Of a stretch of 64,000 nucleotides of DNA, positions 9,701-59,378 are shown piece by piece. The translations under genes were made by a program, and so were the position numbers. The DNA is from an uncultured Candidatus Saccharibacteria bacterium (GTDB lineage: Bacteria; Patescibacteriota; Saccharimonadia; CAILAD01; BJGX01), in contig CAZKFZ010000001.1 of assembly GCA_964552475.1 (NCBI GenBank), positions 35,347 through 99,346 on the forward strand, read 5' to 3'. The notes under the pieces are model-generated. The model did no database searches and was not told the DNA's origin. It was given only the letters and a program-made list of their open reading frames with translations. Position 1 is the first letter of the stretch, and each line of letters begins with the position of its first letter.

Positions 9701-10997
9701 AAAGTTGTTTACCCATACTCGCAAGCACTATAATAGTGATACAGAGTGTTTAAAGCATATATTAGAAAATCAAGTATACGGTTTGGCACCCACCAAGGTG
9801 CTATATGATATTACCCAGTCGTATATATTTGGTTTCGATCAAAATAACAAAGTTAGTAACCACAATTTTGTTGAGCACGACTTACTGCCCGAGGCAAAAG
9901 ACGATACTGCAGCAAAGAAACTCGCACAATTATTTGGAAATGGAGGAAGTATGATGAAATTTGATGCCGTAGTGGGGAATCCACCGTATCAGGAAAATAG
10001 CGGAACAAGTGCCCGAGATGATGCTATATACAATTATTTTTACGACACTGCTGTACAGATAGCTGATAAATACTGCCTGATTTCGCCTGCACGCTTCTTA
10101 TTCAATGCCGGTAGTACCCCAAGACAATGGAATAAAAAAATGCTTAATGACACTCACTTGAAAATTATATCTTATGCGCACGACTCGTCAGCTGTTTTTC
10201 CTAATGTAGGTATTGCGGGTGGTGTAGTGATTATCTTTAGAGATGCTACTCAAGAATATGGAGCAATCGGTACATTTACAAGCTTTGATGAGCTAAATAG
10301 TATTGCGAGTAAAGTGAACACAGCCAGACAAGAAGCACTGACTAATATAATTTCAGGACGGGGTATATATAGGCTAACCCCGCAGCTGCATGAAGAACAC
10401 CCTGAAGTCAAAAATATGCAATCTGCTGGCCACAAAGACGATGTCGGGACGGGTGCATTTGATAAGTTTATCGGAATTATATTTTTTAAATCAAAACCGA
10501 ATGACGGAAAACATTACACACGCGTATACGGTAGGCTGGCCAATGAAAGAACTGATATGTGGATCAGGTCTGACTATATCAATAAACCATATGCAAATGA
10601 TAAGTATAGGGTCATTATTCCTAAAGCTTATGGTACTGGCATAACCGGAGTGGGTGTAACTGCAAGTTTGATTGGAAAACCTTTTGTTATTAAGCCTAAT
10701 GAAGCCTTTACAGAGATGTACATATCCATAGGCGATTTTGAGAGCGAACAAAGTGCTTTAAATGCTTTAAAATACGTAAAATCTAAGTTTGCGCGAGTGA
10801 TGCTAGCTGTCCTTAAGGTTACACAAGACAACACTAAAGAGAAATGGTCAAAAGTTCCACTCCAAGACTTCACATCGAACTCTGATATCGACTGGTCGAA
10901 ATCCATTCCAGAAATCGATCAGCAACTATATGCAAAGTATAAGTTATCAAAAGATGAAATAGAATTTATAGAGTCTCATGTTAAGCCCATGGTGTAG
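6783..10997 (+). CDS. single-polypeptide SNF2/DEAH-box helicase fused to Eco57I-type N6-adenine DNA methyltransferase (Type ISP-like restriction-modification or anti-restriction enzyme)
   Basis: 1404 aa. Helicase motifs: Walker A AKPRFGKT (motif I), VIDEAHEG (motif II DEAH), LHLSGTPF (motif III, SNF2/ResIII-like). A ~250-aa E/K-rich coiled-coil linker follows. MTase motifs: NQIFTPRKVV (motif X, FxxP) and VVGNPPYQ (motif IV NPPY, gamma-class N6-adenine). A ~250-aa C-terminal region could act as a target-recognition domain. The ~150-aa N-terminal domain has a possible GIY-YIG-like stretch (QIYSYTL...KIGYTERKDVDARINEQTH), unconfirmed. Confidence 0.8.
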   Translation: MPDNLPKIKTTKVVYPQIYSYTLPEHKANEGSQKIGYTERKDVDARINEQTHTAAIKLKPQKLWSAPSFFADNKNDFNDKTFHKFLVKNGVENRLDLGKEWFYFDGTPEKSKELFDAFREQGFAALQNVDKKIPYSLRTEQQAAVTMAKNYFTKHSGGEVLWNAKPRFGKTLATYDLAKQMQARKVLIVTNRPAIANSWLDDFEQFVEGYMFISETSSLSNRTALTREQFVSTSVELPQITFLSLQDMKGSRYFGGDYEKLEWVADLEWDMLVIDEAHEGIDTERTDAAFDIVKRKYTLHLSGTPFKALANNKFPKEAIFNWTYLDEQKIKQAELEENDTGDHTELPNLKLYTYRISEMVADEVNEGIEIDNETRDFAFDLNEFFATKDQKFVHEEDVREFLKNLTSNTKYPFSTPDLREELRHTFWYVGNRVDSVKALEQLLKQDDILKDYKIVVAAGDGKSFEEEENDFYGNEKSFDKVKKAIAENPRTITLSCGQLTAGVTIKEWSAVLMLTDIKTPAQYMQAAFRAQNPHRFYEDGQLKAKESAYLFDFAPTRVLEIYDQFANGLNGKAANGEITESERKENIKELLNFFPVISEDIDGKMVELDAEKVLTFPNALAAAEIVKARFMTNLLFNDNVKGVFSFPKEVEDILDKMPIEKNKRAEVAKSVLDLDDARKFEQSREAKINENSGVILGEKIFRSNIERVVDNALNAETTEEIIETLPDKITELAEPLIAKYKEVYKATNAEVEEMKKETDEKVRLVVAEYESSEIKDTAKLKENLANVIENDLVIDRVEQKETEVVEKVQKTKEEEVRDRLRSFTRTIPMFIMANSTKETINIDNFDDHIDDNDFEDLTNITKDEFYKLRDGFDYDENGERKTFGGVFDRYKFNASIAEFVAEKQKRADYFNTHEDIFELIPNQKNNQIFTPRKVVQIMINSLEKESPELFERTDSTFIDLYMKSGMYITEIVKKLFTHTRKHYNSDTECLKHILENQVYGLAPTKVLYDITQSYIFGFDQNNKVSNHNFVEHDLLPEAKDDTAAKKLAQLFGNGGSMMKFDAVVGNPPYQENSGTSARDDAIYNYFYDTAVQIADKYCLISPARFLFNAGSTPRQWNKKMLNDTHLKIISYAHDSSAVFPNVGIAGGVVIIFRDATQEYGAIGTFTSFDELNSIASKVNTARQEALTNIISGRGIYRLTPQLHEEHPEVKNMQSAGHKDDVGTGAFDKFIGIIFFKSKPNDGKHYTRVYGRLANERTDMWIRSDYINKPYANDKYRVIIPKAYGTGITGVGVTASLIGKPFVIKPNEAFTEMYISIGDFESEQSALNALKYVKSKFARVMLAVLKVTQDNTKEKWSKVPLQDFTSNSDIDWSKSIPEIDQQLYAKYKLSKDEIEFIESHVKPMV

Positions 10998-11000
10998 TTA

Positions 11001-11969
11001 GTGGTAGCCAAGCCTAGCATTGATATTTTTGAGAATTCTCTCCGCTCAAGAGGTAATTTACTAGATATATTACTTCTTGATCGTACTACTAAGAAAAATA
11101 TAATTTGGGCTACAGACTCATATAACAAAGCTCAAAAGAATAATAGTTTTTCACCGCGTAGGCAAATAAAACCAGAGCTTGTTACGGGCAAAGTTTATGG
11201 CCAACTTATACAACCAAGAGCTGCAAAACCACTATACGAGCAGCGTAAGCGTACCAAAGACAAAGCGGAGGTTTTCACACCATTACGTGTAGTAGACCAA
11301 ATGAACAAGCATATAGACTGGTCTAGTAGTTATCCACCAAACAAAGATAACTGGCAGGACTATGTGAAACAGCTAAAACTAGAGATAACATGTGGCGAAG
11401 CACCTTTTATGGTAGGAAGGTACAACCCAGATGCTCACACAGGTAAACTGATACAACTATACACTAAGACTGGCAAGCCAAACCGAGTAGGGTTTTTAGA
11501 TCGCAAGCTATACATAGTTTCAAAATATTGCAACAAGCATAGTCAGTGGGTACATTGGGCAAAAGAAGCATTTAAGGCAAGTTATGGATATGAGTGGCAG
11601 GGTGACAATATACTTATAGCTCGTGAGAATTTACTATATACATTTATAGATTTCTATGTAGATAAATTCAAACGTCGCCCATCGTTAAAATTACAAGAAG
11701 AGATTGCAGAGATAATAAGCTGGAATATATTTCAAATGGATGGGCTAAAATATGTAGTACCTATGAGCTGTAAACACATCAATAGAGTAATCCCCGGCGA
11801 GCTTACACTTTTTGGTGAGACACCAGACAGAGTAGAGAAAGACGAATGCGATGGATGTAAGTTACAAAAACCATACAAGCATAACGGTAAGTATGTAAAA
11901 ATAATGGATTGGGAGAAAAATACCACCATAAAGTTCGTTGATCTAATAACACAAAACGACGGCTTGTAA
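11001..11969 (+). CDS. hypothetical Cys-cluster protein translationally coupled to the helicase-MTase gene
   Basis: 322 aa. GTG start 3 nt after the upstream stop. Contains an AEVFTPLRVVDQM motif reminiscent of MTase motif X but no NPPY. C-terminal CKH...C-x2-C cluster (MSCKHIN...DECDGCK). Confidence 0.55.
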   Translation: MVAKPSIDIFENSLRSRGNLLDILLLDRTTKKNIIWATDSYNKAQKNNSFSPRRQIKPELVTGKVYGQLIQPRAAKPLYEQRKRTKDKAEVFTPLRVVDQMNKHIDWSSSYPPNKDNWQDYVKQLKLEITCGEAPFMVGRYNPDAHTGKLIQLYTKTGKPNRVGFLDRKLYIVSKYCNKHSQWVHWAKEAFKASYGYEWQGDNILIARENLLYTFIDFYVDKFKRRPSLKLQEEIAEIISWNIFQMDGLKYVVPMSCKHINRVIPGELTLFGETPDRVEKDECDGCKLQKPYKHNGKYVKIMDWEKNTTIKFVDLITQNDGL

Positions 11970-12052
11970 CCATCGTTTTGCTGGGAGGTGTAGCTTTTCT
12001 AGCGCTTTAGTACTGTCACTACCTAGCTCTCTATAAACCAGCTACTTTTCCA

Positions 12053-12277
12053 TTAACCTCTTGGTGGGAACGGGTCGTTACCGTAAGTCTCACGGTTTTC
12101 AATTGTACCATCTAATTTTTGAATAACTAATTCACTAGGTTGATTTTGTTTAGCAGTAAGTCTGCCTGTTTGCACAACTTTTATCTTTAGTGTATCCACG
12201 AAAAGTACCTTTTTATTATGTGTAAGCGCCCAGCTAGTTTTTGCTGGAGACACATAGTAGTATTTTCTCATCCACAC
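12053..12277 (-). CDS. hypothetical small protein
   Basis: 74-aa ORF, the only one in this gap, with no recognisable motif. The real start may be the second Met (MRKYYYV). Confidence 0.35.
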   Translation of the reverse strand: MWMRKYYYVSPAKTSWALTHNKKVLFVDTLKIKVVQTGRLTAKQNQPSELVIQKLDGTIENRETYGNDPFPPRG

Positions 12278-12531
12278 TCCTTTCTATTACAGAACAATGT
12301 TCACCCTCCCTGTAATTTACAAGGGTAGACTACGAAAGTCTAACGATATTATAGCAAAAATATACCGAACAATAAAATCATACACATCTTTAAATTTTAA
12401 GATCAGTTTTATGTAAATTGAATATAAAAATTACATAATCAACAGGGAATAGGTATAATATATTGTGTGGATATATAATATACAGAGTAATTTATATAAT
12501 TTAATATAAAGATTAAAAAAGGAATAAATAA

Positions 12532-12912
12532 ATGGCAAAGTATGTAGATGGGTTTGTACTAGTTGTGCCCAAAGGTAAAGAAACTGAGTACCAAGAAATG
12601 GCTAAAATGGGCAGAGACTCGTGGATGAAACACGGTGCTTTGCAATACTTTGAGTGCCGAGGTGACGACCTAGTACAACATGAGCAAGGCGACGAAAAAT
12701 CGCGAGATTTTAAAGAAATGGCTGGTGCGGGAGCCGACGAAAACGTATGGTTCTCTTTTATAGTTTTTAAATCTAAAGAGCATAGAGACGAAGTAAACAA
12801 AAAAGTAATGCAAGAGATGGGCGAGGAGTACAAAGACCAAACTGATTTTGAAATGCCCAACGACATGAAAAAAATGGCCTATGGCGGTTTTGAGGTTGTA
12901 GTAGAGGGTTAG
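12532..12912 (+). CDS. DUF1428 (YbaA-like) protein
   Basis: 126 aa. MAKYVDGFVLVVPKGKE...HGALQYFECRGDDL...KKMAYGGFEVVVEG matches the YbaA/DUF1428 fold end to end. AGGAA RBS. Confidence 0.8.
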   Translation: MAKYVDGFVLVVPKGKETEYQEMAKMGRDSWMKHGALQYFECRGDDLVQHEQGDEKSRDFKEMAGAGADENVWFSFIVFKSKEHRDEVNKKVMQEMGEEYKDQTDFEMPNDMKKMAYGGFEVVVEG

Positions 12913-12962
12913 TAAAAGAATCAATGATTGAATGTTCGTAGTATGTTTGGTATATTATATTT

Positions 12963-13790
12963 ATGAGCAACGAAACTAGCATAGCATTGTTTAATGACAA
13001 AGAAGTGCGCAAAACTCTGCATAAAAATGAGTGGTGGTTTTGTATTATTGACGTGGTAGAAATACTTACAGATTCTGTTGATGCTGGTGCATATTGGCGC
13101 AAACTTAAGCAAAGGCTTTTACAAGAGGGTGGCGACCAAACCGTGACAAATTGTCACAGTTTGAAAATGACAGCAAAAGACGGCAAACAACGCAACTTTG
13201 ATGCCATGAAGACAGAGGATATACTACGACTTATACAATCTATACCTTCACCCAAGGCCGAGCCGTTTAAGCGTTGGCTAGCACAAGTAGGTAGTGAGAG
13301 AATTGCTGAGATAGATAACCCCGAGCTTGCCACCGAACGTATGCGCAAGCTATATGAAGCCAAGGGGTACTCGAAAGGCTGGATAGATAAGCGTGTGCGA
13401 GGCATCAATGTACGAGACGAGCTAACAAGCGAATGGAAACAACGAGGCGTAAAAGAGGGCAGAGAGTACGCTATACTTACCAACGATATTTCAAAAGCAA
13501 CATTTGGTATGACAGCGACAGAATATAAAAAACATAAGAGCTTACAACTCGAGAATTTGCGTGATCATATGACAGATCTTGAGCTTATATTTACTATGCT
13601 TGGTGAAGCTGCCACTACAGAAATAGCGCGCAATAAAGATGCACAAGGTTTTTGGCAAAATAAAATGGCAGCTAATCAAGGCGGAAAGATAGCGGGTGAC
13701 GCGAGGGGCAAGCTAGAAAAAGAAAGTGGCAAAAGAGTTGTGAGTAAAGGTAACTACTTAGATAACAACGGCGCAAATAAACTCAAATAA
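12963..13790 (+). CDS. DinD/BRO-N-family protein (DNA-damage-inducible protein D-like)
   Basis: 275 aa. KRWLAQVGSERIAEIDNPELATERMRKLYEAKGYSKGWIDKRVRGI and the C-terminal ARNKDAQGFWQNKMAANQGGKIAGDARGKLEKESGKRVV resemble E. coli DinD and phage Bro-N/antirepressor proteins. Confidence 0.65.
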   Translation: MSNETSIALFNDKEVRKTLHKNEWWFCIIDVVEILTDSVDAGAYWRKLKQRLLQEGGDQTVTNCHSLKMTAKDGKQRNFDAMKTEDILRLIQSIPSPKAEPFKRWLAQVGSERIAEIDNPELATERMRKLYEAKGYSKGWIDKRVRGINVRDELTSEWKQRGVKEGREYAILTNDISKATFGMTATEYKKHKSLQLENLRDHMTDLELIFTMLGEAATTEIARNKDAQGFWQNKMAANQGGKIAGDARGKLEKESGKRVVSKGNYLDNNGANKLK

Positions 13791-15896: not shown

Positions 15897-16442
15897 TTAG
15901 TAAACTATTTTGAGCTGGCTGTTTGGCTCAATAACTGTAGTAAGGGCGTTGGGCGACTCTACACCATTAATATAAAAGCGCAATTGCTGTGCTGAGTTGG
16001 TACAAAAGGTTTGCTTGGTACCGGTAACTATACATTTGGTATCTACACTCATAGGTAGAGTAGTAAACAGATCACCCCAGGTAATGTTAGGTTTGGTAAC
16101 TACCACCTGTACCTGGCTAGAGCCTTCGGGCGGTATGTATACATCGGCCGATTTGTTGTGATAACGCGGGTCGGTAAATATGCGGGTTTCACCATTTATA
16201 ATAATTTGAAAAGTAGCTGTATATGGGGTAAATACCGGTACAGTCGTAGGTTGGCTATTGTTTTGGCTGGTGCTGGCTGGTGCAGTTGTTTTAGCTCTTG
16301 TGAGATACAAGTAGCCAGCAAGAACTATAATAATAGAAACAAAGATAGCAAAAGCTACTAAATACTTATTACTACGTCTTTTTTTTGCATTTTTCATACG
16401 GCTAGTATAGCAACAATTGGTAGTACATAAAACTATTGACAT
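15897..16442 (-). CDS. secreted/membrane-anchored hypothetical protein
   Basis: 181 aa. Basic N-terminus, one TM (LVAFAIFVSIIIVLAGYLYL), then a T/P/S-rich linker and a beta-rich C-terminal domain. Confidence 0.5.
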   Translation of the reverse strand: MSIVLCTTNCCYTSRMKNAKKRRSNKYLVAFAIFVSIIIVLAGYLYLTRAKTTAPASTSQNNSQPTTVPVFTPYTATFQIIINGETRIFTDPRYHNKSADVYIPPEGSSQVQVVVTKPNITWGDLFTTLPMSVDTKCIVTGTKQTFCTNSAQQLRFYINGVESPNALTTVIEPNSQLKIVY

Positions 16443-16464
16443 TTACGCTAGTTTGTGCTAGTAT
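16436..16464 (+). promoter_or_regulatory. sigma70-like promoter for the GC-rich gene at 16505
   Basis: TTGACA, 17 nt spacer, TAGTAT. A GAGAGA RBS sits 5 nt before the ATG at 16505. Confidence 0.5.
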
Positions 16465-16504
16465 AGTTAGGCTCAAGTAAATCTACTGAAAGAGAGATGA
16501 GCAC

Positions 16505-16921
16505 ATGAACATCGACATCAGTGATCTCGACCGTGCAGCCGTGTTGGCCGCGCTCTTCAATGGGGCACGGGCTCAGGGCCTCGGTTTCATCGCTCACCAG
16601 GACGGCGACATGACCGTCGAGCAGGCTCAGGCCATCCTCAACTCCGGTACGACCTACTTCGACTACCTGCAGGGTAGGGTGATGAAGGTCGACCTCTCCG
16701 GCGACTCGTTCGACCCCTGGGGCTACGACCGCGACAACGGCGAGGGCGCTGCCCACTCCGTCATCCGCTCGCTGCGGCAGACCGGCTCGGCCTCCAACGT
16801 GGAGACCAGGCATCTGCACCAGCACGGCATGGCCGCCGCAGCCGACGAGCTTCGGGAGCACTACGGCGACGATCTCGCCGACGAGCTGGTCGGCGCCCGC
16901 CGACCGGTCAGCGAAAGCTGA
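16505..16921 (+). CDS. hypothetical protein with high-GC (actinobacterial-like) codon usage
   Basis: 138-aa ORF with strong G/C third-position bias (atc gac ctc gcc ...), in sharp contrast to the ~40% GC neighbours. The translation is protein-like. The antisense ORF 16448-16960 is judged a high-GC artefact. Confidence 0.6.
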   Translation: MNIDISDLDRAAVLAALFNGARAQGLGFIAHQDGDMTVEQAQAILNSGTTYFDYLQGRVMKVDLSGDSFDPWGYDRDNGEGAAHSVIRSLRQTGSASNVETRHLHQHGMAAAADELREHYGDDLADELVGARRPVSES

Positions 16922-17095
16922 CAAAAAGGTTTGCCAGTTCCTTTCAAAAACTGGCTCCACCTAAGTGTTTAATGATATTAAATTGAAAATTTGGGTGGCA
17001 AAAGGTTCCTTGCTGAGTATTAATCTAATGCTAAGTAAGGAGCTTTTAGCAAATAAAAGCTTTGTACCTGTCCCCAAAAAAAAGGAAAATGCAAA

Positions 17096-17539
17096 ATGAG
17101 TCGACGCTCACTCATGCAGTTGTCGTTTGTGGTGTTTACTACCGCGCTCAGCGTGGCGTACTACCACATCTACATGTCGCTCGACACCTTGGCGCGTCAA
17201 GCGCTTATCGAGATGGGCGACACCACCTACTACCCGCCAGAGAATCAGCTCTGGGTAGCTACCAAGATCGTCGCAATCTCAGCTACCTTCGTGGGTGCTG
17301 GCATGGTGGCACTGATGTTTTTTGCCTACCTTCTCATTATGGCAATGTGCAACCAAGAGATCAACTCAGCCATTCGTGACTGCGAAGAACTTGGTGGCAC
17401 GCTCACCTCAGAACCCATTAAGGTGTGCCACTGGTACAGCTACGACTGGTCGCTAACCGGTGAGTTGCCCAGCGGCGAGGAGTACATTCGCTACAACGGC
17501 GACAACTTCTTCGAGGTTTTTCCGTTCGTACACCACTAG
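17096..17539 (+). CDS. hypothetical membrane protein (GC-rich)
   Basis: 147 aa. Three hydrophobic helices then a Cys-containing soluble tail. AGGAAA RBS. Elevated GC. Confidence 0.55.
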   Translation: MSRRSLMQLSFVVFTTALSVAYYHIYMSLDTLARQALIEMGDTTYYPPENQLWVATKIVAISATFVGAGMVALMFFAYLLIMAMCNQEINSAIRDCEELGGTLTSEPIKVCHWYSYDWSLTGELPSGEEYIRYNGDNFFEVFPFVHH

Positions 17540-17557
17540 GGCCAAGTAGGCCCGCAG

Positions 17558-17589
17558 GGCCCCAACAATTGTTGGGGCCCTTTACCTAT
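17558..17589. repeat. copy 1 of a 22-nt perfect palindrome plus conserved tail (terminator-like repeat element)
   Basis: GGCCCCAACAATTGTTGGGGCC followed by CTTTACCTAT. The same 32-nt element with one substitution recurs at 19803-19834. It can fold as a 9-bp stem, AATT loop and T-rich tail. Confidence 0.8.
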
Positions 17590-17597
17590 AAAACATC

Positions 17598-17626
17598 TTG
17601 CAAATTTATAAATTTACTAGTATAAT
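17598..17626 (+). promoter_or_regulatory. sigma70-like promoter for the flotillin-like gene
   Basis: TTGCAA, 17 nt spacer, TATAAT, about 45 nt upstream of the ATG at 17672. Confidence 0.55.
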
Positions 17627-17671
17627 ACTGCATCGGAATGTATTTCCTAAACGAAAGGTCCAACAAAGGAC

Positions 17672-19765
17672 ATGGTACCTTCCAATACATATGTACTAGG
17701 CGCATCTGAGGGACTCCCAATTGTGCCTATTGTGCTTGGAGTTGTTGCATTTATTGCGCTACTTATCGTGGCGCGATTTATCGTAAAGAGCTTCAATATG
17801 ATTGGCCCAGATGAGTTTGGGTTGGTAGAGAAGCGCCTGGGCAAGAAGTTGCCAGAGGGTCAGTTAATCGCTTTTAACGGCGAGGCCGGCTATCAGGCGG
17901 AGTTGCTTCAGCCAGGCTTACGCTTCAAGCTCTGGCCTCTGTATTGGGTCACTAAGTACCCTCTGGTGCAGGTTGCTGCCGGTGAGATTGGTCTTGTTGT
18001 GGCCCAGGCCGGTGGTGATTTACCCCCAGGCTTCAAGTCTGGTGTCTACAAAGACGAGTTTGGTCTTTTTGCCAACCTAGAAACGTTTATTCAGAACGGT
18101 GGACAGCGTGGCGTGCAGAGACAGGTTTTGCCTCCGGGTACAACCCAGCAGATGCACCCTATCGCATTCATTGTACGGACTCGGTCTGAGACTTTCGGCA
18201 CGGTTTTGTCGGAGTCGGCTGAGGAAGTGCTGAATAGAATTCCGCCCGAAAAATTGGTGCCGTTCACTATTGAACCCCAGGGTCATACCGACGTAGTGGG
18301 TGTGGTTACTACACTCGAAGGCGCTCCGGCCAAAGGCATCGCCAGTCGGCTTGGTAACTTCGACGATGTAGTAGAAGCTGAGGCAGCAGATACGGCGGCT
18401 AACACCATCATCACAACGGTGCTTGCGCCCAAAAACAACCTGCACAACAACTACCAGGATTTCCAGGCTTTTCTGGATGCTGGTGGGTGCATTGGCCTCC
18501 AGCACGATCCACTACTTTACGGGCAGTACATGCTAAACCCCTACCTGGTTTCAGTTGAGCTTCGCGAGATGCTCGTTGTGCGCCAGGGCGAGGTTGCTGT
18601 GGTTAAGGCCTACGTAGGCCTACCCACCGAAGATACGTCTGGCGAGGAGTTTAAGTTTGGCTCTATTGTAGAGCCAGGTCATCAGGGTATTTGGTCGGAG
18701 CCACTGCGCACCGGCAAGTACACCCTTAACCCACGCATTTACGAGGCCGAGATTGTACCGACCTCTATCCTTACACTCAACTGGGCCAATGCAACCAGCG
18801 AGGCTCACAACCTCGATGGTTCGTTGTCGTCGATTCACGCCAAGAGCAAGGAAGCGTTCGATTTTAGCATTGATCTGCAGGTGCAGATTCACGTGCCCGA
18901 CACTCGAGCACCCAAGGTTATTAGCATGGTTGGTACCATGCAGAACCTGGTTAATGAGGTTCTGCAGTCGGCGGTAGGCAACTACTTCCGTAATACACTG
19001 CAGTCTCTAGGCGCCGCTGAGTTCATTCAGAAGCGTGACGAAGTCCAGGCCCAGGCCGAGAACTACGTCATGGGTTACCTCTCGCGTTATGAGGTAGAGG
19101 TGCGCGGTGTTTACATCCAGGATGTGGTCTTCCCACCAGAGTTGGTAGAGGTGCTTACAACGCGAGAAATCGCAGCACAGCAGACTCAAACCTACCAGAG
19201 CCAGATGGTAGCCGAGCAGGCTCGAATTGACCTGGAGAACCAAAAGGGCGTGGCCGATGCCCAGGCCGATTTGGCAAGGGCTCGGGTTTCGGTGGATGTT
19301 AACGATGCCGAGGCTCAGGCTGCGGTTAAGCGTGCTGAAGGTGAGGCTGCGGTCGTGCGTCAACGCGGTCAGGCTGCTGCCGATGTTACAAAGCTGACAG
19401 GTGAGGCTGAGGCTGCTGCCACACAAGCTACTGGTTTGGCCGAGGCCAAGGCCACCGAGGCCAAGGGTCTCGCGGTCGCCAAGGGCTTCGATGCTCAGCA
19501 GCGGGCTATTGGCCGTCAGCAGACTGGTTTGGTTGCTGCACTCGAGCAGATTGGCAAGGGTGGAGTGGTACTCACTCCGCAGATTCAGGTTGGTGGTGAC
19601 TCAGTAGGCTCTGGTCTACTAAACACCCTAATGACCTTAGGTGTCGATAAGATGGTGAACGACAACGGCGAGGGTTCGCCCGAGCTGGAGGCCGTTGATG
19701 CGTCGTCCGATGCTGAAGCCTCGGCTGAGCCGAGCGATGAAGCACCGTCAACCAACGAAGACTAA
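17672..19765 (+). CDS. SPFH/band-7 flotillin-family protein
   Basis: 697 aa. N-terminal TM, SPFH core (KSFNMIGPDEFGLVEKRLGK...), long C-terminal A/E/Q-rich repeats (AEAQAAVKRAEGEAAVVRQRGQAAAD...) typical of flotillin. Acidic tail. Elevated GC. Confidence 0.75.
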   Translation: MVPSNTYVLGASEGLPIVPIVLGVVAFIALLIVARFIVKSFNMIGPDEFGLVEKRLGKKLPEGQLIAFNGEAGYQAELLQPGLRFKLWPLYWVTKYPLVQVAAGEIGLVVAQAGGDLPPGFKSGVYKDEFGLFANLETFIQNGGQRGVQRQVLPPGTTQQMHPIAFIVRTRSETFGTVLSESAEEVLNRIPPEKLVPFTIEPQGHTDVVGVVTTLEGAPAKGIASRLGNFDDVVEAEAADTAANTIITTVLAPKNNLHNNYQDFQAFLDAGGCIGLQHDPLLYGQYMLNPYLVSVELREMLVVRQGEVAVVKAYVGLPTEDTSGEEFKFGSIVEPGHQGIWSEPLRTGKYTLNPRIYEAEIVPTSILTLNWANATSEAHNLDGSLSSIHAKSKEAFDFSIDLQVQIHVPDTRAPKVISMVGTMQNLVNEVLQSAVGNYFRNTLQSLGAAEFIQKRDEVQAQAENYVMGYLSRYEVEVRGVYIQDVVFPPELVEVLTTREIAAQQTQTYQSQMVAEQARIDLENQKGVADAQADLARARVSVDVNDAEAQAAVKRAEGEAAVVRQRGQAAADVTKLTGEAEAAATQATGLAEAKATEAKGLAVAKGFDAQQRAIGRQQTGLVAALEQIGKGGVVLTPQIQVGGDSVGSGLLNTLMTLGVDKMVNDNGEGSPELEAVDASSDAEASAEPSDEAPSTNED

Positions 19766-19802
19766 TTCGTACCTAGTACATGTAGAATAAATTGTACCCA
19801 AA

Positions 19803-19834
19803 GGCCCCAACAATTGTTGGGGCCTTTTACCTAT
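19803..19834. repeat. copy 2 of the 22-nt perfect palindrome plus tail; also the likely terminator of the flotillin gene
   Basis: GGCCCCAACAATTGTTGGGGCC followed by TTTTACCTAT, 38 nt after the stop at 19765. Confidence 0.8.
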
Positions 19835-19972
19835 TTAAAATCCCAAAACACAAATATAACTATAATCTACTAGGTATAATGTAAGTTTTATAAAATCAAG
19901 ACTAAACTACCCTGGTCTATTTATAAGTAGTATAATATACATCAATACTAAAACAGTTAAGCTTTGTAAAAA

Positions 19973-20641
19973 ATGTATAATCTAATACCTAAAGAATTTC
20001 TAAGAATAATTTACTCGCAACACAGTAAAGAGTTGGGTAAAAATCTTGCTGGTATAGTGTTGTGCGGTAGTGCAGCCAACCATAGCCTAGATCGTGACTC
20101 CGATATAGACTATGTTGTGATAGTTAAAAATTTAGATAAAAATAGCTACAAAGTCTTGGCTGATTTACGGCTTGCACTAGAAAAGCAACTTGGTTTGCAG
20201 TGCAGTAATACTGTTGTTGAGTATCACTCTATTAGAGATTTAAAAAACAACTATATGTACTTAGACGGTAAAGCAGTACAAGCCTGTATTGACTCAAACG
20301 CACAAAATACTTTACTAAATAAGAGTTATGCCATACCTAAGCTAGATTCTAGTACGGTCCGAAAGTTTTCGGCTCTAGATTTTCATAAGCTAAAAGCTCT
20401 TACTATTAAACAACTAGTAAGAATGTCTAATCCAGCTAGCTACAGCGAGAGACGTAAAGTAATAAAATTAGCTTATATTTTATGTAAAGTTTATGCACAG
20501 GCTAGTACAACTACTCAAGAAAAAGAGTATATGGATAGCATTAGAGACTCACTAATGTCAATAAAAAACAATATTCGCAAATATAATGATAGTCAGCTTT
20601 TTGAGGTTATTGCTAGAATAATTTCTCTAAATCTTCACTAG
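19973..20641 (+). CDS. minimal nucleotidyltransferase (Pol-beta superfamily; KNTase/Lnu-like)
   Basis: 222 aa. LCGSAANHSLDRDSDIDYVVIV is the G[GS]-x(9-13)-D-x-[DE] nucleotidyltransferase signature. Helical C-terminal domain. Confidence 0.6.
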   Translation: MYNLIPKEFLRIIYSQHSKELGKNLAGIVLCGSAANHSLDRDSDIDYVVIVKNLDKNSYKVLADLRLALEKQLGLQCSNTVVEYHSIRDLKNNYMYLDGKAVQACIDSNAQNTLLNKSYAIPKLDSSTVRKFSALDFHKLKALTIKQLVRMSNPASYSERRKVIKLAYILCKVYAQASTTTQEKEYMDSIRDSLMSIKNNIRKYNDSQLFEVIARIISLNLH

Positions 20642-34074: not shown

Positions 34075-34158
34075 TAATTATATATATTCTTATGCTTGAG
34101 TTTTACAGGAGTTTAGTTTAAAGTTGGTTTGTCTATATTAATTATCGGAAGGCTACCG

Positions 34159-34557
34159 ATGAGCAGTGACGACGTAGTAAAAGTTTGGGACAATACTGGT
34201 GGCGAGAGTCCAGACGAAAAACCACATAACTGGAGTCACGCAAAGACCCCTTGGCCAACTGGTCCATTTGACGGAATAGAGTACCTTTTTCCACCTGATG
34301 ACCCAAGGAGTAGGATACTTTTACGTGCAAAACAAAGAATGGACCTTGGCGATAAAGGTAGATGGGTGTTAGTAGAAGAGTTTGAAATTACTGCGATTCT
34401 GAATCTTAGGATTTGTCGTAGTTCTCATACATTTGCTCCAGCAGAATTAGATCTAACACATGACTTTACTGCATACTGTGTATTGCAAGCTGGTCACGCC
34501 GGTCATCATAGTAACGGCACTCTACGTTGGAGACCCCAACTGATTGTAGTCACTTAA
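34159..34557 (+). CDS. hypothetical protein
   Basis: The ORF track gives 34129-34557. The start at 34159 (MSSDDVV) is preferred because a GGAAGG RBS sits 6 nt upstream. No recognisable domain. Confidence 0.4.
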   Translation: MSSDDVVKVWDNTGGESPDEKPHNWSHAKTPWPTGPFDGIEYLFPPDDPRSRILLRAKQRMDLGDKGRWVLVEEFEITAILNLRICRSSHTFAPAELDLTHDFTAYCVLQAGHAGHHSNGTLRWRPQLIVVT

Positions 34558-35810: not shown

Positions 35811-36191
35811 CTAGTGTTGTTCGTGGGGGTCGGCCATGGCATCGGCTTTGGTGGCGTGAACGGTGCCGTCAGGGTGTTCGGGTGGTGAGTAAATAGTGTA
35901 GAGTTTGAGCTTGTCGTCGCCAGTATTTACAATATTGTGTTCTACGCCTGCCGGAATAATTACACAGCTACCATCTTCTAATACTGATTCCTCGCCGTTT
36001 AAGATAGCCTTAGCACTGCCTTTATCTACTCTTATAAACTGATCGTGCTCTGGGTGAGTTTCTAGGCCAATTTCTTCTCCTGCTTCTAGGCTCATCACCA
36101 CAAGTTGCATGTTTTTGGCGGTGTAAAGTACCTTGCGAAAATTGTCGTTTTCGAGAGTATCCTTTTCTATATTAGTTACAAATCCAGTCAT
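35811..36191 (-). CDS. cupin-domain protein
   Basis: 126 aa. GLETHPEHDQFIRVDKG...IIPAGVEHNIVN is a two-motif cupin signature. Confidence 0.7.
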   Translation of the reverse strand: MTGFVTNIEKDTLENDNFRKVLYTAKNMQLVVMSLEAGEEIGLETHPEHDQFIRVDKGSAKAILNGEESVLEDGSCVIIPAGVEHNIVNTGDDKLKLYTIYSPPEHPDGTVHATKADAMADPHEQH

Positions 36192-36285
36192 AATTGTACT
36201 CCTTATTTATCTATACTAATTATACCACAGCCTTGGTAATAGAACTTGTGCTACAATAACTAAATAAAACTAATGGAGGGTAATT

Positions 36286-37062
36286 ATGAGTGAATCTAAA
36301 ATTTCTTTTAGCAAACTTCGCAATCTCAATCTTGTTGCTGCAGGTTTGCATTTTGCCCAGGCTGGATTAATTCTGTACTTAAGCAAAAGTTTTACTTTGC
36401 CAGTAACGACTTCTTTTTTGCGATTTAATTATAATACTCAATCTTTAGAACCAGCTACAAAAACACTGTTTAATATCAACCTAGCATACTTGGTGGTGGC
36501 ATTTTTGTTTATGAGCGGCATTGCTCACCTAGTAATTACTACGGTTTGGCGCAAGGGCTATGAGGCCGATCTGGTAAAAGGTATTAACCGCGCCCGCTGG
36601 ATAGAATACAGCATTAGTGCCAGCACCATGATAGTGGCAATAGCCATGCTTACTGGTATATACGATATAGTAACGCTACTAGCGCTATTTGCACTAACAG
36701 CGGTAATGAACTTGTGTGGTCTAATAATGGAGGTACACAACCAGACTACCAAAAGAACCAACTGGTTGAGTTACTATGTTGGTTGTTTGGCCGGCATAGT
36801 GCCCTGGATAGGTATAGCGCTAACATTTTGGGCTTCGGCACAATTTAGTATTGGCGATGCCCAAATACCTACTTTTGTTTACTACATATTTGTTAGCTTG
36901 TTTATATTCTTTAACTGCTTTGCAATAAATATGGTGTTGCAATACAAAAAAATTGGTCCCTGGCGTGATTACTTATATGGAGAGAGGGTTTATATTATTC
37001 TTAGCTTAGTAGCCAAATCAGCCTTGGCTTGGCAAGTTTTTGCAGGTACGTTAAGACCATAA
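36286..37062 (+). CDS. heliorhodopsin (retinal-binding 7-TM photoreceptor, inverted topology)
   Basis: 258 aa, 7 hydrophobic helices. The stretches RWIEYSISASTMIVAIA, GCLAGIVPWIGI and GERVYIILSLVAKSALAWQVFAG (retinal Lys in TM7) match the conserved heliorhodopsin blocks as recalled from memory. GGAGGG RBS 7 nt upstream. Confidence 0.7.
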   Translation: MSESKISFSKLRNLNLVAAGLHFAQAGLILYLSKSFTLPVTTSFLRFNYNTQSLEPATKTLFNINLAYLVVAFLFMSGIAHLVITTVWRKGYEADLVKGINRARWIEYSISASTMIVAIAMLTGIYDIVTLLALFALTAVMNLCGLIMEVHNQTTKRTNWLSYYVGCLAGIVPWIGIALTFWASAQFSIGDAQIPTFVYYIFVSLFIFFNCFAINMVLQYKKIGPWRDYLYGERVYIILSLVAKSALAWQVFAGTLRP

Positions 37063-37120: not shown

Positions 37121-38053
37121 ATGAGCGAAAAAACTAACAAAATTTATGACGTAATAATTATTGGCGCTGGCCCGGCTGGCTACACAGCAGCAATTTATGC
37201 TTCACGCGCTAATCTTGGTACGCTAATGATTGCTGGCGATACACCTGGTGGCCAACTGCTACTTACATCTGAGGTGGAGAACTTTCCTGGTTTTAAAGAC
37301 GGCATTATGGGCCCAGAGCTGATGGAGCAAATGAAGGCCCAGGCGCTACGATTTGGCACCGAATTTAGAGCCGACTTTGTAACCAAGATTGATTTAAAAG
37401 CTCAACCCAAAAAGATCTGGGTAGGCAATGATATGTATAGCGCCAAAACCGTTATTATATCAACTGGTGCAAGTGCTAACTGGCTGGGCCTAAAAAACGA
37501 ACAACGCCTAATGGGCAAGGGCATATCGGCCTGTGCTACTTGCGATGGTTTTTTCTTTACCGACAAGCACGTAGTAGTGGCTGGTGGTGGAGACAGTGCT
37601 ATGGAGGAAGCTCTCACATTAGCCAAATTTGCAAGTAAGGTAACTATTGTGCACCGCAGAGACGAATTTAGGGCGAGTAAGATTATGCAAGATCGTGTAA
37701 AAGAACACAAAAAAATTGATATTATTTGGAATGCTCAAGTAGTAGATGTGCTCGGCAAAGACTTTGTAGAGGGTGTAAGGCTCAAAGATACAGTAACTAG
37801 TAAAGAGCGCGACTTGGCTTGTGGCGGACTGTTTGTGGCTATTGGTCACACTCCAGCCACCAAGCTTTTTGATGGTGTACTAAATAGAGATGAAAAAGGC
37901 TATCTTACGCCCAAGGCTAATACTAGTACTGAAATACCTGGCGTATACGCTGCGGGTGATGTAGCTGACTCGCGCTATAGACAAGCAATTACCGCCGCTG
38001 GCGATGGTTGCCGTGCAGCACTAGAGGCCGAGCACTTTATTGCAAACCTTTAA
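37121..38053 (+). CDS. trxB: thioredoxin-disulfide reductase
   Basis: 310 aa. IIGAGPAGYTAAIYASRANL (FAD), redox-active CATCDG, GGGDSAMEEA (NADPH) and YAAGDVAD. Confidence 0.9.
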   Translation: MSEKTNKIYDVIIIGAGPAGYTAAIYASRANLGTLMIAGDTPGGQLLLTSEVENFPGFKDGIMGPELMEQMKAQALRFGTEFRADFVTKIDLKAQPKKIWVGNDMYSAKTVIISTGASANWLGLKNEQRLMGKGISACATCDGFFFTDKHVVVAGGGDSAMEEALTLAKFASKVTIVHRRDEFRASKIMQDRVKEHKKIDIIWNAQVVDVLGKDFVEGVRLKDTVTSKERDLACGGLFVAIGHTPATKLFDGVLNRDEKGYLTPKANTSTEIPGVYAAGDVADSRYRQAITAAGDGCRAALEAEHFIANL

Positions 38054-38091: not shown

Positions 38092-38571
38092 ATGGCAGAT
38101 ATTGTTATAAAAAAAATACCAATTTTTCATAGTGGCAGACTATATTATCTTTTTGATCAAGCGCTTGAAAAAGATTTTGCCTATTTTTCACCCTCTTATC
38201 GTCAAAATGTGCGCCGTACCAATAATATTAATAAACTTAGGCTAGGTACTATTCATCCTTACAGGCTGTTTATGGGAGTGTATCAGAACAATGAATTAAA
38301 AGGCTATTCTATATCTGGAATTCAAAAAAGTAATATGAGAGCTTTTTTATATTGGCTCTATATAGTACCGGCACTAAGAAAAAAACAACTCGGTCAGTTA
38401 CTGCTGAGCGAAACAGAGAGGGGACTAAAAGCCAAGAAGGTTGACTCAATCGAACTAGTAACTCACAATCAACAGCTTTTCTATGAACGATCTGGCTATG
38501 ATATTAATAAAATTCTTACAGAGGTAGATACAGACGTAGACATGTATCTAATGTCTAAGGTGGGTATATGA
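38092..38571 (+). CDS. GNAT-family N-acetyltransferase (putative)
   Basis: 159 aa. LYIVPALRKKQLGQLLL (acetyl-CoA P-loop-like R/Q-x-x-G-x-G/A) and C-terminal YERSGY. Confidence 0.5.
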   Translation: MADIVIKKIPIFHSGRLYYLFDQALEKDFAYFSPSYRQNVRRTNNINKLRLGTIHPYRLFMGVYQNNELKGYSISGIQKSNMRAFLYWLYIVPALRKKQLGQLLLSETERGLKAKKVDSIELVTHNQQLFYERSGYDINKILTEVDTDVDMYLMSKVGI

Positions 38572-40025
38572 AAAAAGTGTCGCACAAAAGAACTACTCAC
38601 CAACATAAGAGTACCTCACACTTGGTTACTACAGCGCAAAAGCCTACTAAAAGCAAAATAAGTAAAAAATTTTATATAATTATTGCAGTAGAAATAGTTC
38701 TTATGATTGCTATTGCCGGTTTTCTTAGATGGCAAGCGTACAAGAACTCAAACAAAGTTATTTACTCGCCACCCGCCAAACAACTTGAATCTACCAAGCC
38801 TCCCAAAATTGACACAGGTAAGATAGTTTCTAGCGAACCTGCGCAAAACTTTACAGCCGCTCAAACACTAGAACGTATTAAGCAAACTAATCGTAATTTT
38901 GACTTACCAGTTACGCAAGGTCACACCAAACAAACCTACGTATATACCAGTTCTGATGGCATAGTAAATGACGTGCCAATTTATGCTAGAGTATATATTC
39001 CTTCAAATATAGGCACAAAAAAACTACCAGTTTTAGCGTTTGCACCAGGTACAATCGGTATTGGAGACGCTTGTGGAGGCAGTTTAGAGCAACCCGCTAA
39101 ACGCAACTGGGCAAATTATGATAGTTTGATGGCTGCCTATGCCAGCCAAGGCTATATGGTGGTTATTACCGATTACGAGGGCTTGCGTGACCCCAATAGA
39201 ATTCATCATTATATGGTGGGTGATATTGAAGGCAGAGCCGTATTAGATAGTATTCGCTCACTTGAAAATCTTGAGTTGTCAAAGAACAGTATCGATGAAA
39301 ATGTTGTATTTACTGGTGGTTATAGTCAAGGTGGACATGCTGCTTTTTGGGCCGACGCGATTGCCTCTAAATATGCACCAGACATCAAATTACGTGGTGC
39401 AATTGGTTTTGGCCCGGTGACTAGCGTAAACGAAACCCTTACCGATGCCATCACCAATAACGCCAATATAAACTGGTTTGGACCATTTGTACTCACAAGC
39501 TATCAAGATTGGTACAAGCGAGAGTATCCAGTAAATAGAATACTTTTGCCGCAGTGGACTAAGTCTCTTCAGACCGACGTGTCGCGCGAGTGTATTGACA
39601 CAGTTAACAGATATTGGCCAAATAATCTTGGCGTAAATAGATCGGCAAATATTTATACCCAAGAGTTTATATCTGCTGCCAAAACTGGAAATCTCGCCAG
39701 TAATAAAATATATGCTCAATTTATGGCCGACATGGAAAGTAACATTGTGGGCCCAATAAAAACTGATACACCCAAACTTATTAATCAAGGTATGCATGAT
39801 AACGTAGTATTGCCTCGCCAAAACCAAGCTGGCTATGCCAGATTATGTGCGGCAGGAAATACAACCAACCTTAAAGAGTACACTACCAGTAAGTATGCAA
39901 TACAAAGTTATAACCCCCAAGGGCTCGTTGATCATTACCAGACTATGAATGCGAGTTTTAGAGACACTCTTGTCTGGATGAGTGAGCGTATAAGCGGTGT
40001 TATTGTCTCTGGCTCTTGCAAATAA
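38568..40025 (+). CDS. secreted lipase-family alpha/beta hydrolase
   Basis: 485 aa. N-terminal TM/signal. GGYSQGGHAA (GxSxG). Size and layout resemble the secretory lipase (LIP) family. Start overlaps the upstream stop (ATGA). Confidence 0.6.
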   Translation: MKKVSHKRTTHQHKSTSHLVTTAQKPTKSKISKKFYIIIAVEIVLMIAIAGFLRWQAYKNSNKVIYSPPAKQLESTKPPKIDTGKIVSSEPAQNFTAAQTLERIKQTNRNFDLPVTQGHTKQTYVYTSSDGIVNDVPIYARVYIPSNIGTKKLPVLAFAPGTIGIGDACGGSLEQPAKRNWANYDSLMAAYASQGYMVVITDYEGLRDPNRIHHYMVGDIEGRAVLDSIRSLENLELSKNSIDENVVFTGGYSQGGHAAFWADAIASKYAPDIKLRGAIGFGPVTSVNETLTDAITNNANINWFGPFVLTSYQDWYKREYPVNRILLPQWTKSLQTDVSRECIDTVNRYWPNNLGVNRSANIYTQEFISAAKTGNLASNKIYAQFMADMESNIVGPIKTDTPKLINQGMHDNVVLPRQNQAGYARLCAAGNTTNLKEYTTSKYAIQSYNPQGLVDHYQTMNASFRDTLVWMSERISGVIVSGSCK

Positions 40026-56898: not shown

Positions 56899-57711
56899 TT
56901 GAAAAAACCGAAAGGCGAAAAAGTGCCTACCAACAAATTAATTCGCGGTGAGGTTTTTAGAGGATCTACAGACGAGTGCTTTAAGGCATTTGTGAATAGA
57001 TTTGATAAGCCTCGCGAACAAAAGCTGTTTGCTCAGCTAATTAATGTTAGCTACCACTCTACATTAAGAGTATGGATTCGTAATGGTTTCAACACTCAGG
57101 GTGAGATTCTGTTGCGTGTTCGCGTAGTGCTAGAGCTATTTGGCTACAATTGTACGGAATGGGAAGATCTTGCCGACGAAGACAGAATAATTGCCTATGC
57201 AGTTGGTCTTGGTGTGTGTAGTGCTGCAGATGCTAGTGAGGCTCTAGCCTATGCTAGAACTAAGCAGTATCTAAGGTACATCCTACAAAGAACTGGACGC
57301 ACCAAAGACAAGGACGAGTTGGCTAAAGTATATGCTGAGATTGTCTTTTCAACAACTCAGCTACACATCGCCGAGTTTTGGGATAATGATGTAAAACAAA
57401 GCCCGGTGCTCTATAGAGCTAAGCCAGTTGCAACTAATGACGAATCAACTCTTATCGTATCTGCCCCAGACGAGACAACTCTATCTGTAGCAGAAGTTGA
57501 GAATGTCTTTGTTGCTTCGGTACAGGCTCTTTTACCTCTGGCTCGCTACTTCAATAGCGACGCGGTGAGCGAAGAGCAGCGTCGAGGCTTAAGAAAACGC
57601 GTAGGTTACGACGGTATTAGCGAGCTTAGTAGCTTGTTTGATTCACTCAGTAACGAACAAAGTCGTCGCAAGATTCGTGCCAACAGGAGCGAAGAGAGGA
57701 TTGTACGCTGA
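56899..57711 (+). CDS. HTH (XRE-like) domain protein, translationally coupled to a GHKL ATPase
   Basis: 270 aa. QKLFAQLINVSYHSTLRVWIRNG looks like a helix-turn-helix. TTGACT, 17 nt spacer, TAATAT promoter-like element at 56832-56860. Stop overlaps the next start (TGATG). Confidence 0.5.
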   Translation: MKKPKGEKVPTNKLIRGEVFRGSTDECFKAFVNRFDKPREQKLFAQLINVSYHSTLRVWIRNGFNTQGEILLRVRVVLELFGYNCTEWEDLADEDRIIAYAVGLGVCSAADASEALAYARTKQYLRYILQRTGRTKDKDELAKVYAEIVFSTTQLHIAEFWDNDVKQSPVLYRAKPVATNDESTLIVSAPDETTLSVAEVENVFVASVQALLPLARYFNSDAVSEEQRRGLRKRVGYDGISELSSLFDSLSNEQSRRKIRANRSEERIVR

Positions 57712-59378
57712 TGGCTAAACTCAAACCTCACGTAGGAGCGGCCATTATGGCCGCGGCCGAAACTTACCCATACGTATTTGCGGTTATCCTAGAGGCTATC
57801 CAGAACGCCATGGATGCCGATGCTCAGAACGTTTGGGTAGATATCAATCGTAAGAAGCGTGAAGTTCGCGTTTACGACGATGGCGTAGGTGTTACCAAAG
57901 AGAAGTTCGATATTGCTTTGCAAACCGTTGGACGAAGCATTAAGGGTGAGCAAGTAGATGCCTATGGTCAATTTGGCCGCGGCTTGGTGGCTCCTTTGGG
58001 CAAGTGTGATTACTTCACATTTACTTCTAATGGTCTGGAGTGGACCTTTGTTACCGAAGACATCGAAAACTCGGCTGACGAAGTGGATGTTCCCGAAAAA
58101 GAAGTAGAGATTGTTTTTTCTAAGAGTCAACAAAAACGTCAAAAACACCCAGTAAACCCCAATTGGCGTACCCGCATGGTGATGTATGGTGTCACCAAAG
58201 ACCGCAAGACGTCGGAGTTTGATGTGAACAAGTTGGCTGCTACCGCGGTTACCAACTTCCGCACCAAGATGCTTCGAAACGAAACAGTCTTGCGCTTTAC
58301 CGTACAACCCCTGAAGGGCCCAGAATACACCTTTACAACGGTGGCTGAGCCTTATAGTGGCACTAAGCTTGATCCGTTCGTTTTCGAGCCGAGGCGAGAC
58401 AAATTGGTAGAGATCAAGCTGTTCTTGGCACTTCATATTGAAGGTAAGTATAGCGGTAGTGTTTCTACTGGTACCCTGGCTACACCTTACCGCGTACCAT
58501 TTGAGACTCTCTTAAAAAACCAAAGAAGCCTTACAGATCTACTAGACGACGAGATCGTTCAGGCGCTTTGTTCGGGAATTTTTGAAGGAGAGTTGCTTAG
58601 CAACACTCTTACTTTGAGCCCCGAGCGAGTAAGCTATGAAGACAACGATGGTTTTGTAGAGTTCTGTATGGCACTAGAGAACTGGTATGAGCATACTGGT
58701 AGGGAATACTACCAAGAGGCTCTTAGCCGAGAAGACTCTGAAAGATTTGAAAAAAATGCCGAAAAAGCTTTAGATGCTCTCAACAAGCTTTTTGAAGACC
58801 CATCTATGAGAATGTATGCTGATCTCGTTGGTCGGTTTCCTGCCGATCTCCCTGGTACAGGGGCGCAAGGCCCCGACCCAACCGGTGACGACGAAGAAAC
58901 TGATGTGCCTGCCAGCAAAACACCTAGCCCAAAGAAGACCGGTGAGGGTGGTAGCCCTGGTGGCGGAAACGGTACTGGAGGCGACAACCCAACACCTGGC
59001 GGTGGGGGTGGTGGTAAAAATGGAGGAAATGGTCGAACCACCGATGGTGGCGAAACAAAGGTTCCGGATCCATCTGGTAAGGAGCGTAAAACCGTCAAGG
59101 CGAAGTCGTTTGGCTTGCGCCTAGGTGAAACTCAACACCTAAGTGGACCTTGGCAACTAGATTTACGAGTTGGTGTTTTGTGGATTAACACCAAGCACCC
59201 CTTGTACTTACAGTGCGCCGACTACAGTCGAAACCCCGACCTTTGTATTCGTCGCTATCAACAGCACGTGGCCATTCAGGCTCTTAGCCTGCATTGTTCA
59301 CCTGAAGAATCACAAAAGCACGCAGCCGAGGTGCTCGACACCGAGCTTGCTGCCTTTGTTATCTTGCTAACTCAGTAG
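57711..59378 (+). CDS. MORC/MutL-like GHKL (Bergerat-fold) ATPase, HATPase_c_3-type
   Basis: 555 aa. N-box ILEAIQNAMDA, G1 VYDDGVGVT, G2 YGQFGRGLVAPLGKCDYFTFTS. C-terminal Gly-rich low-complexity segment (GEGGSPGGGNGTGGDNPTPGGGGGGKNGGNG). No MutL endonuclease motif. Confidence 0.7.
   Translation: MAKLKPHVGAAIMAAAETYPYVFAVILEAIQNAMDADAQNVWVDINRKKREVRVYDDGVGVTKEKFDIALQTVGRSIKGEQVDAYGQFGRGLVAPLGKCDYFTFTSNGLEWTFVTEDIENSADEVDVPEKEVEIVFSKSQQKRQKHPVNPNWRTRMVMYGVTKDRKTSEFDVNKLAATAVTNFRTKMLRNETVLRFTVQPLKGPEYTFTTVAEPYSGTKLDPFVFEPRRDKLVEIKLFLALHIEGKYSGSVSTGTLATPYRVPFETLLKNQRSLTDLLDDEIVQALCSGIFEGELLSNTLTLSPERVSYEDNDGFVEFCMALENWYEHTGREYYQEALSREDSERFEKNAEKALDALNKLFEDPSMRMYADLVGRFPADLPGTGAQGPDPTGDDEETDVPASKTPSPKKTGEGGSPGGGNGTGGDNPTPGGGGGGKNGGNGRTTDGGETKVPDPSGKERKTVKAKSFGLRLGETQHLSGPWQLDLRVGVLWINTKHPLYLQCADYSRNPDLCIRRYQQHVAIQALSLHCSPEESQKHAAEVLDTELAAFVILLTQ

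Follow-up and report, generated by a model that had tools for sequence, protein, structure and literature searches.

A TaHeR-like heliorhodopsin, probably loaded with salvaged retinal, encoded beside trxB in a Candidatus Saccharibacteria bacterium

Introduction

Heliorhodopsins (HeRs) have been reported as restricted to monoderms (bioRxiv 10.1101/356287). A survey of 1326 CPR genomes yielded 98 heliorhodopsins, of which Saccharimonadia accounted for 80; SLVAK was the commonest TM7 motif among the CPR proteins, for which a role in oxidative stress was proposed (Chiriac et al. 2022, PMC9166423). Rhodopsin-bearing Saccharibacteria whose genomes are 79-98% complete were found to be without blh, and it was proposed that their retinal is derived from the host (Jaffe et al. 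2022, PMC9296517). TaHeR is cited in that work as the rhodopsin of a microbe without a retinal pathway, with fast binding of retinal through an opening in the protein. Three HeR partners have been shown experimentally, namely glutamine synthetase (PMC9529153), photolyase (PMC9769723) and an ABC multidrug transporter (PMC11109279), and genes for thioredoxin, peroxidase and catalase are enriched near HeRs (PMC8612252).

Here we follow up an original prediction, made from DNA sequence, that a heliorhodopsin gene is present in a 64-kb stretch of a Candidatus Saccharibacteria genome. The whole of this stretch is referred to below as the window, and all positions are counted from its first base.

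Results

An intact gene of the heliorhodopsin family

The predicted gene corresponds to a single open reading frame with an ATG start. The three sequence blocks quoted in the original prediction, RWIEYSISASTM, GCLAGIVPWIGI and GERVYIILSLVAKSALAWQ, are all found in its translation. The gene and its putative start signals are as follows.

36249..36257, plus strand: TGcTACAAT, an extended -10-like element and inferred promoter, spotted by eye
36275..36279, plus strand: GGAGG ribosome-binding site, 6 nt 5' of the HeR ATG, read from the sequence
36286..37062, plus strand: HeR gene, 258 aa (PF18761, NF038020, PDB 6is6, AlphaFold model and residue map)

The -10-like element is located about 30 nt upstream of HeR, inside a 94-bp AT-rich divergent intergenic region. 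A sigma-70 consensus scan in which a -35 hexamer was required called no promoter upstream of HeR, this element included, and the promoter-like sites that it returned were no more numerous than in shuffled sequence. We also compared the gene with its counterpart in L082 (GCA_964481235.1), which is the nearest of the relatives that have a long contig. The two genes are 87.3% identical at the DNA level, and their codon differences comprise 77 synonymous and 12 nonsynonymous changes, so that the HeR is under purifying selection. The reading frame is a real gene and not a chance ORF.

The encoded protein matched the Pfam Heliorhodopsin family PF18761 across the entire profile (1-242 of 242; E=2.4e-97, 325.5 bits against a cutoff of 26.7), as well as the NCBIfam HeR equivalog NF038020 (338.6 bits against a cutoff of 100). 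The best match among solved structures was TaHeR (6IS6/7U55; E=2e-86, about 60% identity), followed by 48C12 (6SU3/9LJJ/6UH3; E about 1e-57, 45% identity). The assignment to the heliorhodopsins that was made originally is therefore borne out by both family profiles and by the solved members. About 8000 homologs were retrieved from the protein collection at E<=1e-10, and close homologs in NCBI are already labelled 'heliorhodopsin HeR [Patescibacteria group bacterium]'.

An AlphaFold2 model, constructed with 25 homologs as input (mean pLDDT 87.1, pTM 0.82), contained seven helices and a long AB beta-hairpin with strands at residues 37-48 and 53-65. By Foldseek, this model superposed on TaHeR with TM scores of 0.86-0.90 (0.87-0.90 for 6is6/7u55) and on 48C12 with scores of 0.83-0.87. 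Superposition on type-1 rhodopsins was poorer (TMq <=0.67, TMt <=0.73, rmsd 6-9 A). The type-1 microbial rhodopsin family PF01036 gave no match in the HeR protein at E<=0.01. A type-1 identity was excluded on the basis of this absent match, the presence of SxxxK instead of DxxxK in the seventh helix, and the poorer fold superposition.

Retinal pocket and predicted topology

The numbering of 48C12 was transferred onto the window HeR through HMMER alignments, using the residue lists of PMC7049168. K244 corresponds to the Schiff-base lysine (K241 in 48C12, K238 in TaHeR); it falls inside the model helix spanning residues 229-255 (TM7) and is invariant in the 25 homologs. The counterion E107 is located in TM3 at the same position as E107 of 48C12. 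S240 corresponds to S237 of 48C12, such that the motif S240xxxK244 reads SLVAK, with Ser and not Asp four residues before the lysine. The serines that stabilise the counterion in 48C12 (S76 and S111) are kept as S77 and S111. The Schiff-base cavity is identical, being composed of H22, H81, N101, Y108, N15, E233, R104 and Y92 (H23, H80, N101, Y108, N16, E230, R104 and Y92 in 48C12). Also conserved are the E149 region, the hydrophobic barrier L12/L96/L227 and the pi-bulge P172, all in 48C12 numbering. In total, 43 of the 51 structurally named residues of 48C12 are identical in the window HeR.

Where the protein departs from 48C12, it exhibits the states of TaHeR: Q213M, I142N, N138T, S112A and F162Y. 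Met at 213 together with Asn at 142 (48C12 numbering) defines the subfamily-3-type pocket of Kovalev, whereas the mostly viral subfamily 2 is marked by Glu at 202, His at 162/166 and loss of P172 (PMC7049168). The marks of subfamily 2 are absent from the window HeR, which has L205, Y163/C167 and a retained P173. The substitutions Q213M, I142N, N138T and S112A place the protein in the TaHeR-like group and not in subfamily 1, to which 48C12 belongs. The criteria given for a lateral fenestration and carotenoid site are aromatic residues at 162/206, small residues at 166/210, G169 and N207 in 48C12 numbering (bioRxiv 10.1101/2025.11.27.691015); the corresponding TM5/TM6 positions of the window HeR (Y163, C167, G170, F209, N210 and A213) are permissive in all six cases.

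Lysine and arginine residues number 13 on the side formed by the N-terminus and loops 2-3, 4-5 and 6-7, and 4 on the other side. This distribution predicts an inverted topology with a cytoplasmic N-terminus, as anticipated in the original prediction. Two further expectations were upheld by alignment to 48C12, in that the TM7 lysine aligns with K241 within the model helix and the Glu counterion is present as E107. Alignment and model together show the complete architecture of the family, with seven transmembrane helices, the AB beta-hairpin, K244, E107, S240xxxK244, the Schiff-base cavity, E149 and an N-in distribution of charge.

Assignment to Saccharibacteria and probable vertical inheritance

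When one genome was scanned for each species, 594 HeR relatives were recovered. The best 80 of these 594, whose identities are 56-68% (74% for a partial gene), derive almost entirely from MAGs of Candidatus Saccharibacteria/Saccharimonadia, with a few from Dojkabacteria, Woykebacteria, Dehalococcoidales, Thermoplasmatales and others. The nearest species-representative HeR is 68% identical, and the 74% value belongs to the partial gene in L012. Backbone genes of the window match the same MAGs, and in the same order, with identities of 82-83% for TypA, 81-82% for TrxB and 54-62% for LIP, ParA and ParB. In a neighbor-joining tree, the window HeR nested with those syntenic Saccharibacteria MAGs, a placement that favors vertical descent inside one Saccharibacteria subclade over a recent transfer. 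The HeR relatives, the matching backbone genes and the tree together assign the window to Candidatus Saccharibacteria. Horizontal transfer from archaea, a possibility prompted by TaHeR being the best match in the PDB, was rejected on account of this nesting and the backbone synteny.

A HeR with 95% identity is found in the fully syntenic NCBI MAG GCA_964481235.1 (L082). Its nucleotide identity to the window, about 86%, suggests a related but different species. The exact window HeR protein was found elsewhere only on a 7.2-kb Logan contig. LytR-CpsA-Psr proteins and sortases are typical of Gram-positive-type envelopes. A LytR-CpsA-Psr protein is encoded in the window, and sortase genes are present in related loci; judged from sequence, the LytR-CpsA-Psr gene fits an envelope of this type, in line with the report that HeRs are restricted to monoderms.

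Retinal supply

The 64-kb window contains 63 non-overlapping ORFs that are 110 aa or longer, among which Pfam searches returned no match to SQS_PSY, Amino_oxidase/CrtI, Lycopene_cycl, BCD/Blh or RPE65, and the original statement that no retinal genes occur in the window thus held. About 23 window ORFs match no family; relaxed NCBIfam scans of the family-less ORFs of 270-430 aa likewise gave no carotenoid-related match. Carotenoid and retinal genes were also absent from the recurrent neighbors in 80 HeR loci (1420 ORFs). The window result, covering 64 kb, by itself says little about retinal genes in the whole genome. Given that the organism is a Saccharibacteria-type CPR bacterium, a reading in which an episymbiont salvages its retinal is reasonable. 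By analogy with its relatives, the cell probably makes no retinal and the apoprotein is probably loaded with retinal of exogenous origin.

Genomic context of the HeR gene

The genes flanking HeR are listed below.

35811..36191, minus strand: Cupin_2 monocupin, 126 aa, divergent from HeR (PF07883, E=5.4e-16)
37121..38053, plus strand: TrxB, low-molecular-weight thioredoxin-disulfide reductase, 310 aa (TIGR01292, Pyr_redox_2)
38092..38571, plus strand: GNAT acetyltransferase (family match)
38568..40025, plus strand: LIP-family secretory lipase (family match)

The matches to PF07883 and TIGR01292 confirm the cupin and trxB that had been named as flanking genes. TrxB scored 404.2 bits against the TIGR01292 equivalog (cutoff 343.45), matched Pyr_redox_2 at E=3.8e-52 and contains a CATC active site. 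HeR, trxB, GNAT and LIP follow one another on a single strand, separated by 58, 38 and -4 bp, and terminator prediction found none between HeR and trxB. The shared strand, the short gaps and the lack of a predicted terminator make co-transcription of HeR and trxB plausible.

Direct adjacency of HeR and trxB was found, among the loci compared, only in the window and in its 95% relative (GCA_964481235.1). TrxB is located 890 bp from HeR in L012 and about 4 kb from it in L041. In L007 the distance is about 4.7 kb and the two genes are on opposite strands, and in L033 and L035 they are separated by a helicase gene. The string TrxB-GNAT-LIP is a conserved unit in relatives, even where HeR is not directly upstream. 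Being limited to the closest relatives, the adjacency argues only weakly for a functional connection, and it may be incidental.

To survey neighbors more broadly, 1420 ORFs from 80 HeR loci (the best 80 of the 594 relatives) were clustered. No neighbor was common to most of these loci, and the top clusters consisted of housekeeping synteny blocks together with MsrA and TrxB. MsrA is a thioredoxin-dependent enzyme. It (PF01625; representative E=9.7e-60) is encoded no more than 3 kb from HeR in 8 of the 80 loci (L024, L050, L056, L065, L069, L073, L075 and L078), one of which is from a Thermoplasmatales archaeon MAG, and is thereby a second thiol-redox repair gene that recurs near HeR. This recurrence agrees with the published enrichment of redox genes and with the proposed oxidative-stress role, without going beyond either.

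Homologs of the cupin adjoin HeR in three contexts that have no other shared synteny: the window and L082, L038 (cupin 586 bp upstream of HeR) and L059 (cupin 9 bp downstream). Orientations differ among these contexts, and the numbers are too small for an association to be called. The best solved relative of the window cupin is BH2720 (2oa2; E=3.4e-33), a structural-genomics protein. The idea that the cupin might be a retinal-forming dioxygenase was dropped, as it is a BH2720-like monocupin that adjoins HeR in only three contexts.

Of the 80 loci, 20 have genes for ABC-transporter ATPases at 10 kb or less from HeR (L016, L019, L022, L023, L051, L055 and 14 others) and 6 have ABC-2 permeases, which recalls the published pairing of HeR with an ABC transporter (PMC11109279). 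The surroundings of the window HeR include no nearby ABC transporter gene. None of the genes for glutamine synthetase, photolyase or an ABC multidrug transporter is adjacent to it.

Other features of the window

Scans for tRNA, rRNA and Rfam families returned nothing in the 64 kb, which is otherwise gene-dense chromosomal DNA carrying parAB, prfA, prmC, rpmE and typA. Four other regions of the window are listed below.

6783-13790: a defence-type island (lowered GC of 0.38, strongly positive AT skew) encoding three proteins, namely a fusion of a helicase with an Eco57I-type type IIG restriction-methyltransferase (1404 aa; padloc E=3.3e-46), a type II methyltransferase of 322 aa (E=2.6e-88) and a BRO-N / PDC-S13 protein of 275 aa (E=3.9e-120)
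16000-20000: a block with GC of 0.50-0.52, against about 0.40 elsewhere, encoding a 697-aa SPFH/Band_7 protein (17672..19765) and three ORFs without a Pfam family; probably horizontally acquired DNA
34129-34557: a 142-aa TTG-start ORF without a family, between typA and a RecD-like helicase; absent from L082 (86% identical), which has a 161-aa His_Phos_1-like gene at this place; the site is a small variable one, or else the ORF may not be a true gene
57711-59378: a protein of 555 aa that begins with a HATPase_c_3 (GHKL ATPase) domain and weakly matches the padloc model TmtA; GC is raised in this block (0.476), and the 270-aa ORF before the gene is without a family

Discussion

Together, the sequence, the structural model and the analogy to characterized relatives make it very likely that this gene encodes a functional TaHeR-like HeR, with a Kovalev subfamily-3-type pocket, of a Candidatus Saccharibacteria bacterium, and that the protein acts as a light sensor or regulator using salvaged retinal. 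By homology to 48C12 and TaHeR, it would insert with its N-terminus inside and C-terminus outside and bind all-trans retinal at K244, with E107 as the counterion. Green light (about 540-550 nm) would isomerise the retinal to the 13-cis form, upon which the Schiff-base proton would move to the internal cytoplasmic cavity with no net transport. A long-lived state, on the scale of seconds, would then modulate a partner protein, so that the HeR would serve as a sensor or regulator and not as a pump. Exogenous retinal, and perhaps a xanthophyll antenna, would enter via the TM5/TM6 fenestration, the source being the host or the surroundings. More speculatively, since trxB is located 58 bp downstream and is probably co-transcribed, the output may be tied to protection from light-associated oxidative damage; that TrxB would connect it to thiol-redox defence is possible and weakly supported.

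A stronger version of this last idea would make the HeR a dedicated light-dependent regulator of TrxB, encoded in a HeR-TrxB operon and tuning thiol-redox to light by direct binding. The common strand, the 58-bp gap without a predicted terminator and the retention of this arrangement in the 95% relative are in its favor, as are MsrA near HeR in 8 other loci, the enrichment of redox proteins near HeRs (PMC8612252) and the precedent for HeR regulation of operon neighbors (PMC9529153, PMC9769723, PMC11109279). We nevertheless regard it as unlikely, given that immediate adjacency is seen in one shallow lineage only and differs in L012, L033/L035, L041 and L007, that TrxB-GNAT-LIP is a conserved unit with or without HeR, and that TrxB falls outside the ten published groups of frequent neighbors (PMC11109279). 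A bolder extension, in which a co-transcribed HeR directly gates TrxB or the downstream GNAT or lipase as a light-switched thiol-redox defence with the cupin as a further component, appears quite improbable. If true, gating of TrxB would add a new HeR-partner pair to those with glutamine synthetase, photolyase and ABC transporters, and would serve an episymbiont that has almost no regulatory repertoire.

It is likewise improbable that the HeR functions as a two-chromophore light harvester, with an exogenous xanthophyll at the fenestration, rather than as a sensor. Non-viral HeRs are not known to have an energy-converting output. All six carotenoid-site positions are permissive and xanthophyll recruitment was recently proposed for most HeRs, but that proposal is based on structures, sequence analysis and docking (bioRxiv 10.1101/2025.11.27.691015); moreover, a bound xanthophyll would be compatible with the sensor explanation and does not exclude it. 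Ion transport, as in the viral V2HeR3, is very unlikely on residue grounds, and a viral-type ion-transporting HeR was set aside: L205, Y163/C167 and P173 depart from the subfamily 2 features, and H22/H81 are kept. The closest characterized relatives, TaHeR and 48C12, reportedly transport no ions (Pushkarev 2018; Shihoya 2019). What speaks for transport is membership of the same superfamily, in which proton transport is described for some viral HeRs, V2HeR3 among them (PMC12873467). Least of all do we expect a decaying relic whose apoprotein is useless without a retinal supply. The window has no retinal pathway, nor has one been described from the lineage (PMC9296517), but the intact frame, the strong ribosome-binding site, the full conservation of catalytic and pocket residues, the ratio of 77 synonymous to 12 nonsynonymous differences against a diverged relative and the wide retention of HeR across Saccharibacteria MAGs render decay extremely unlikely.

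Because both the heliorhodopsins of CPR bacteria (PMC9166423) and retinal salvage (PMC9296517) have been published, the finding is already known. Apart from being correctly annotated, the gene does little more than enlarge the catalogued set of Saccharibacteria HeRs by one, in agreement with what has been published on retinal-auxotrophic, rhodopsin-carrying CPR bacteria. The one mildly useful lead is the local HeR-trxB tandem, together with MsrA near HeR in other lineages. It is consistent with the proposed, unproven link of HeRs to protection from light-induced oxidative stress and provides a simple pair for biochemical testing.

Comparison with known rhodopsins

The SacRs described by Jaffe et al. 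2022 (PMC9296517) share the host lineage of the window HeR and the same logic of retinal auxotrophy and salvage. They belong to another family, have DxxxK and not SxxxK, and differ further in being outward proton pumps and in their opposite membrane orientation; no SacR gene was found in the 64-kb window.

With 48C12, the founding member of the family (PDB 6SU3, 6SU4, 6UH3, 9LJJ), the window HeR shares E107, K241, S237, H23/H80, E149, E230 and P172 in 48C12 numbering, whereas its pocket differs by Q213M, I142N, N138T and S112A. TaHeR, from Thermoplasmatales archaeon SG8-52-1 (PDB 6IS6, 7U55, 7CLJ), is about 60% identical over 248 aligned residues and has in common with the window HeR the counterion Glu, the Schiff-base Lys, SLVAK and A112/T138/N142/M216, as well as Tyr at the first aromatic position of the fenestration. 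Its source organism is likewise cited as being without a retinal pathway, with retinal captured through an opening (PMC9296517). The two proteins differ in host, Saccharibacteria as opposed to an archaeon, and in the extracellular TM5-TM6 loop, which is 7 residues longer in the window HeR than in TaHeR (WASAQFSIGDAQIP), a length typical of Saccharibacteria homologs.

The CPR heliorhodopsins of Chiriac et al. 2022 belong to the same lineage and family, carry the same SLVAK motif and show no difference of substance from the window HeR. The oxidative-stress role proposed for them fits the TrxB neighbor seen in the window (PMC9166423).
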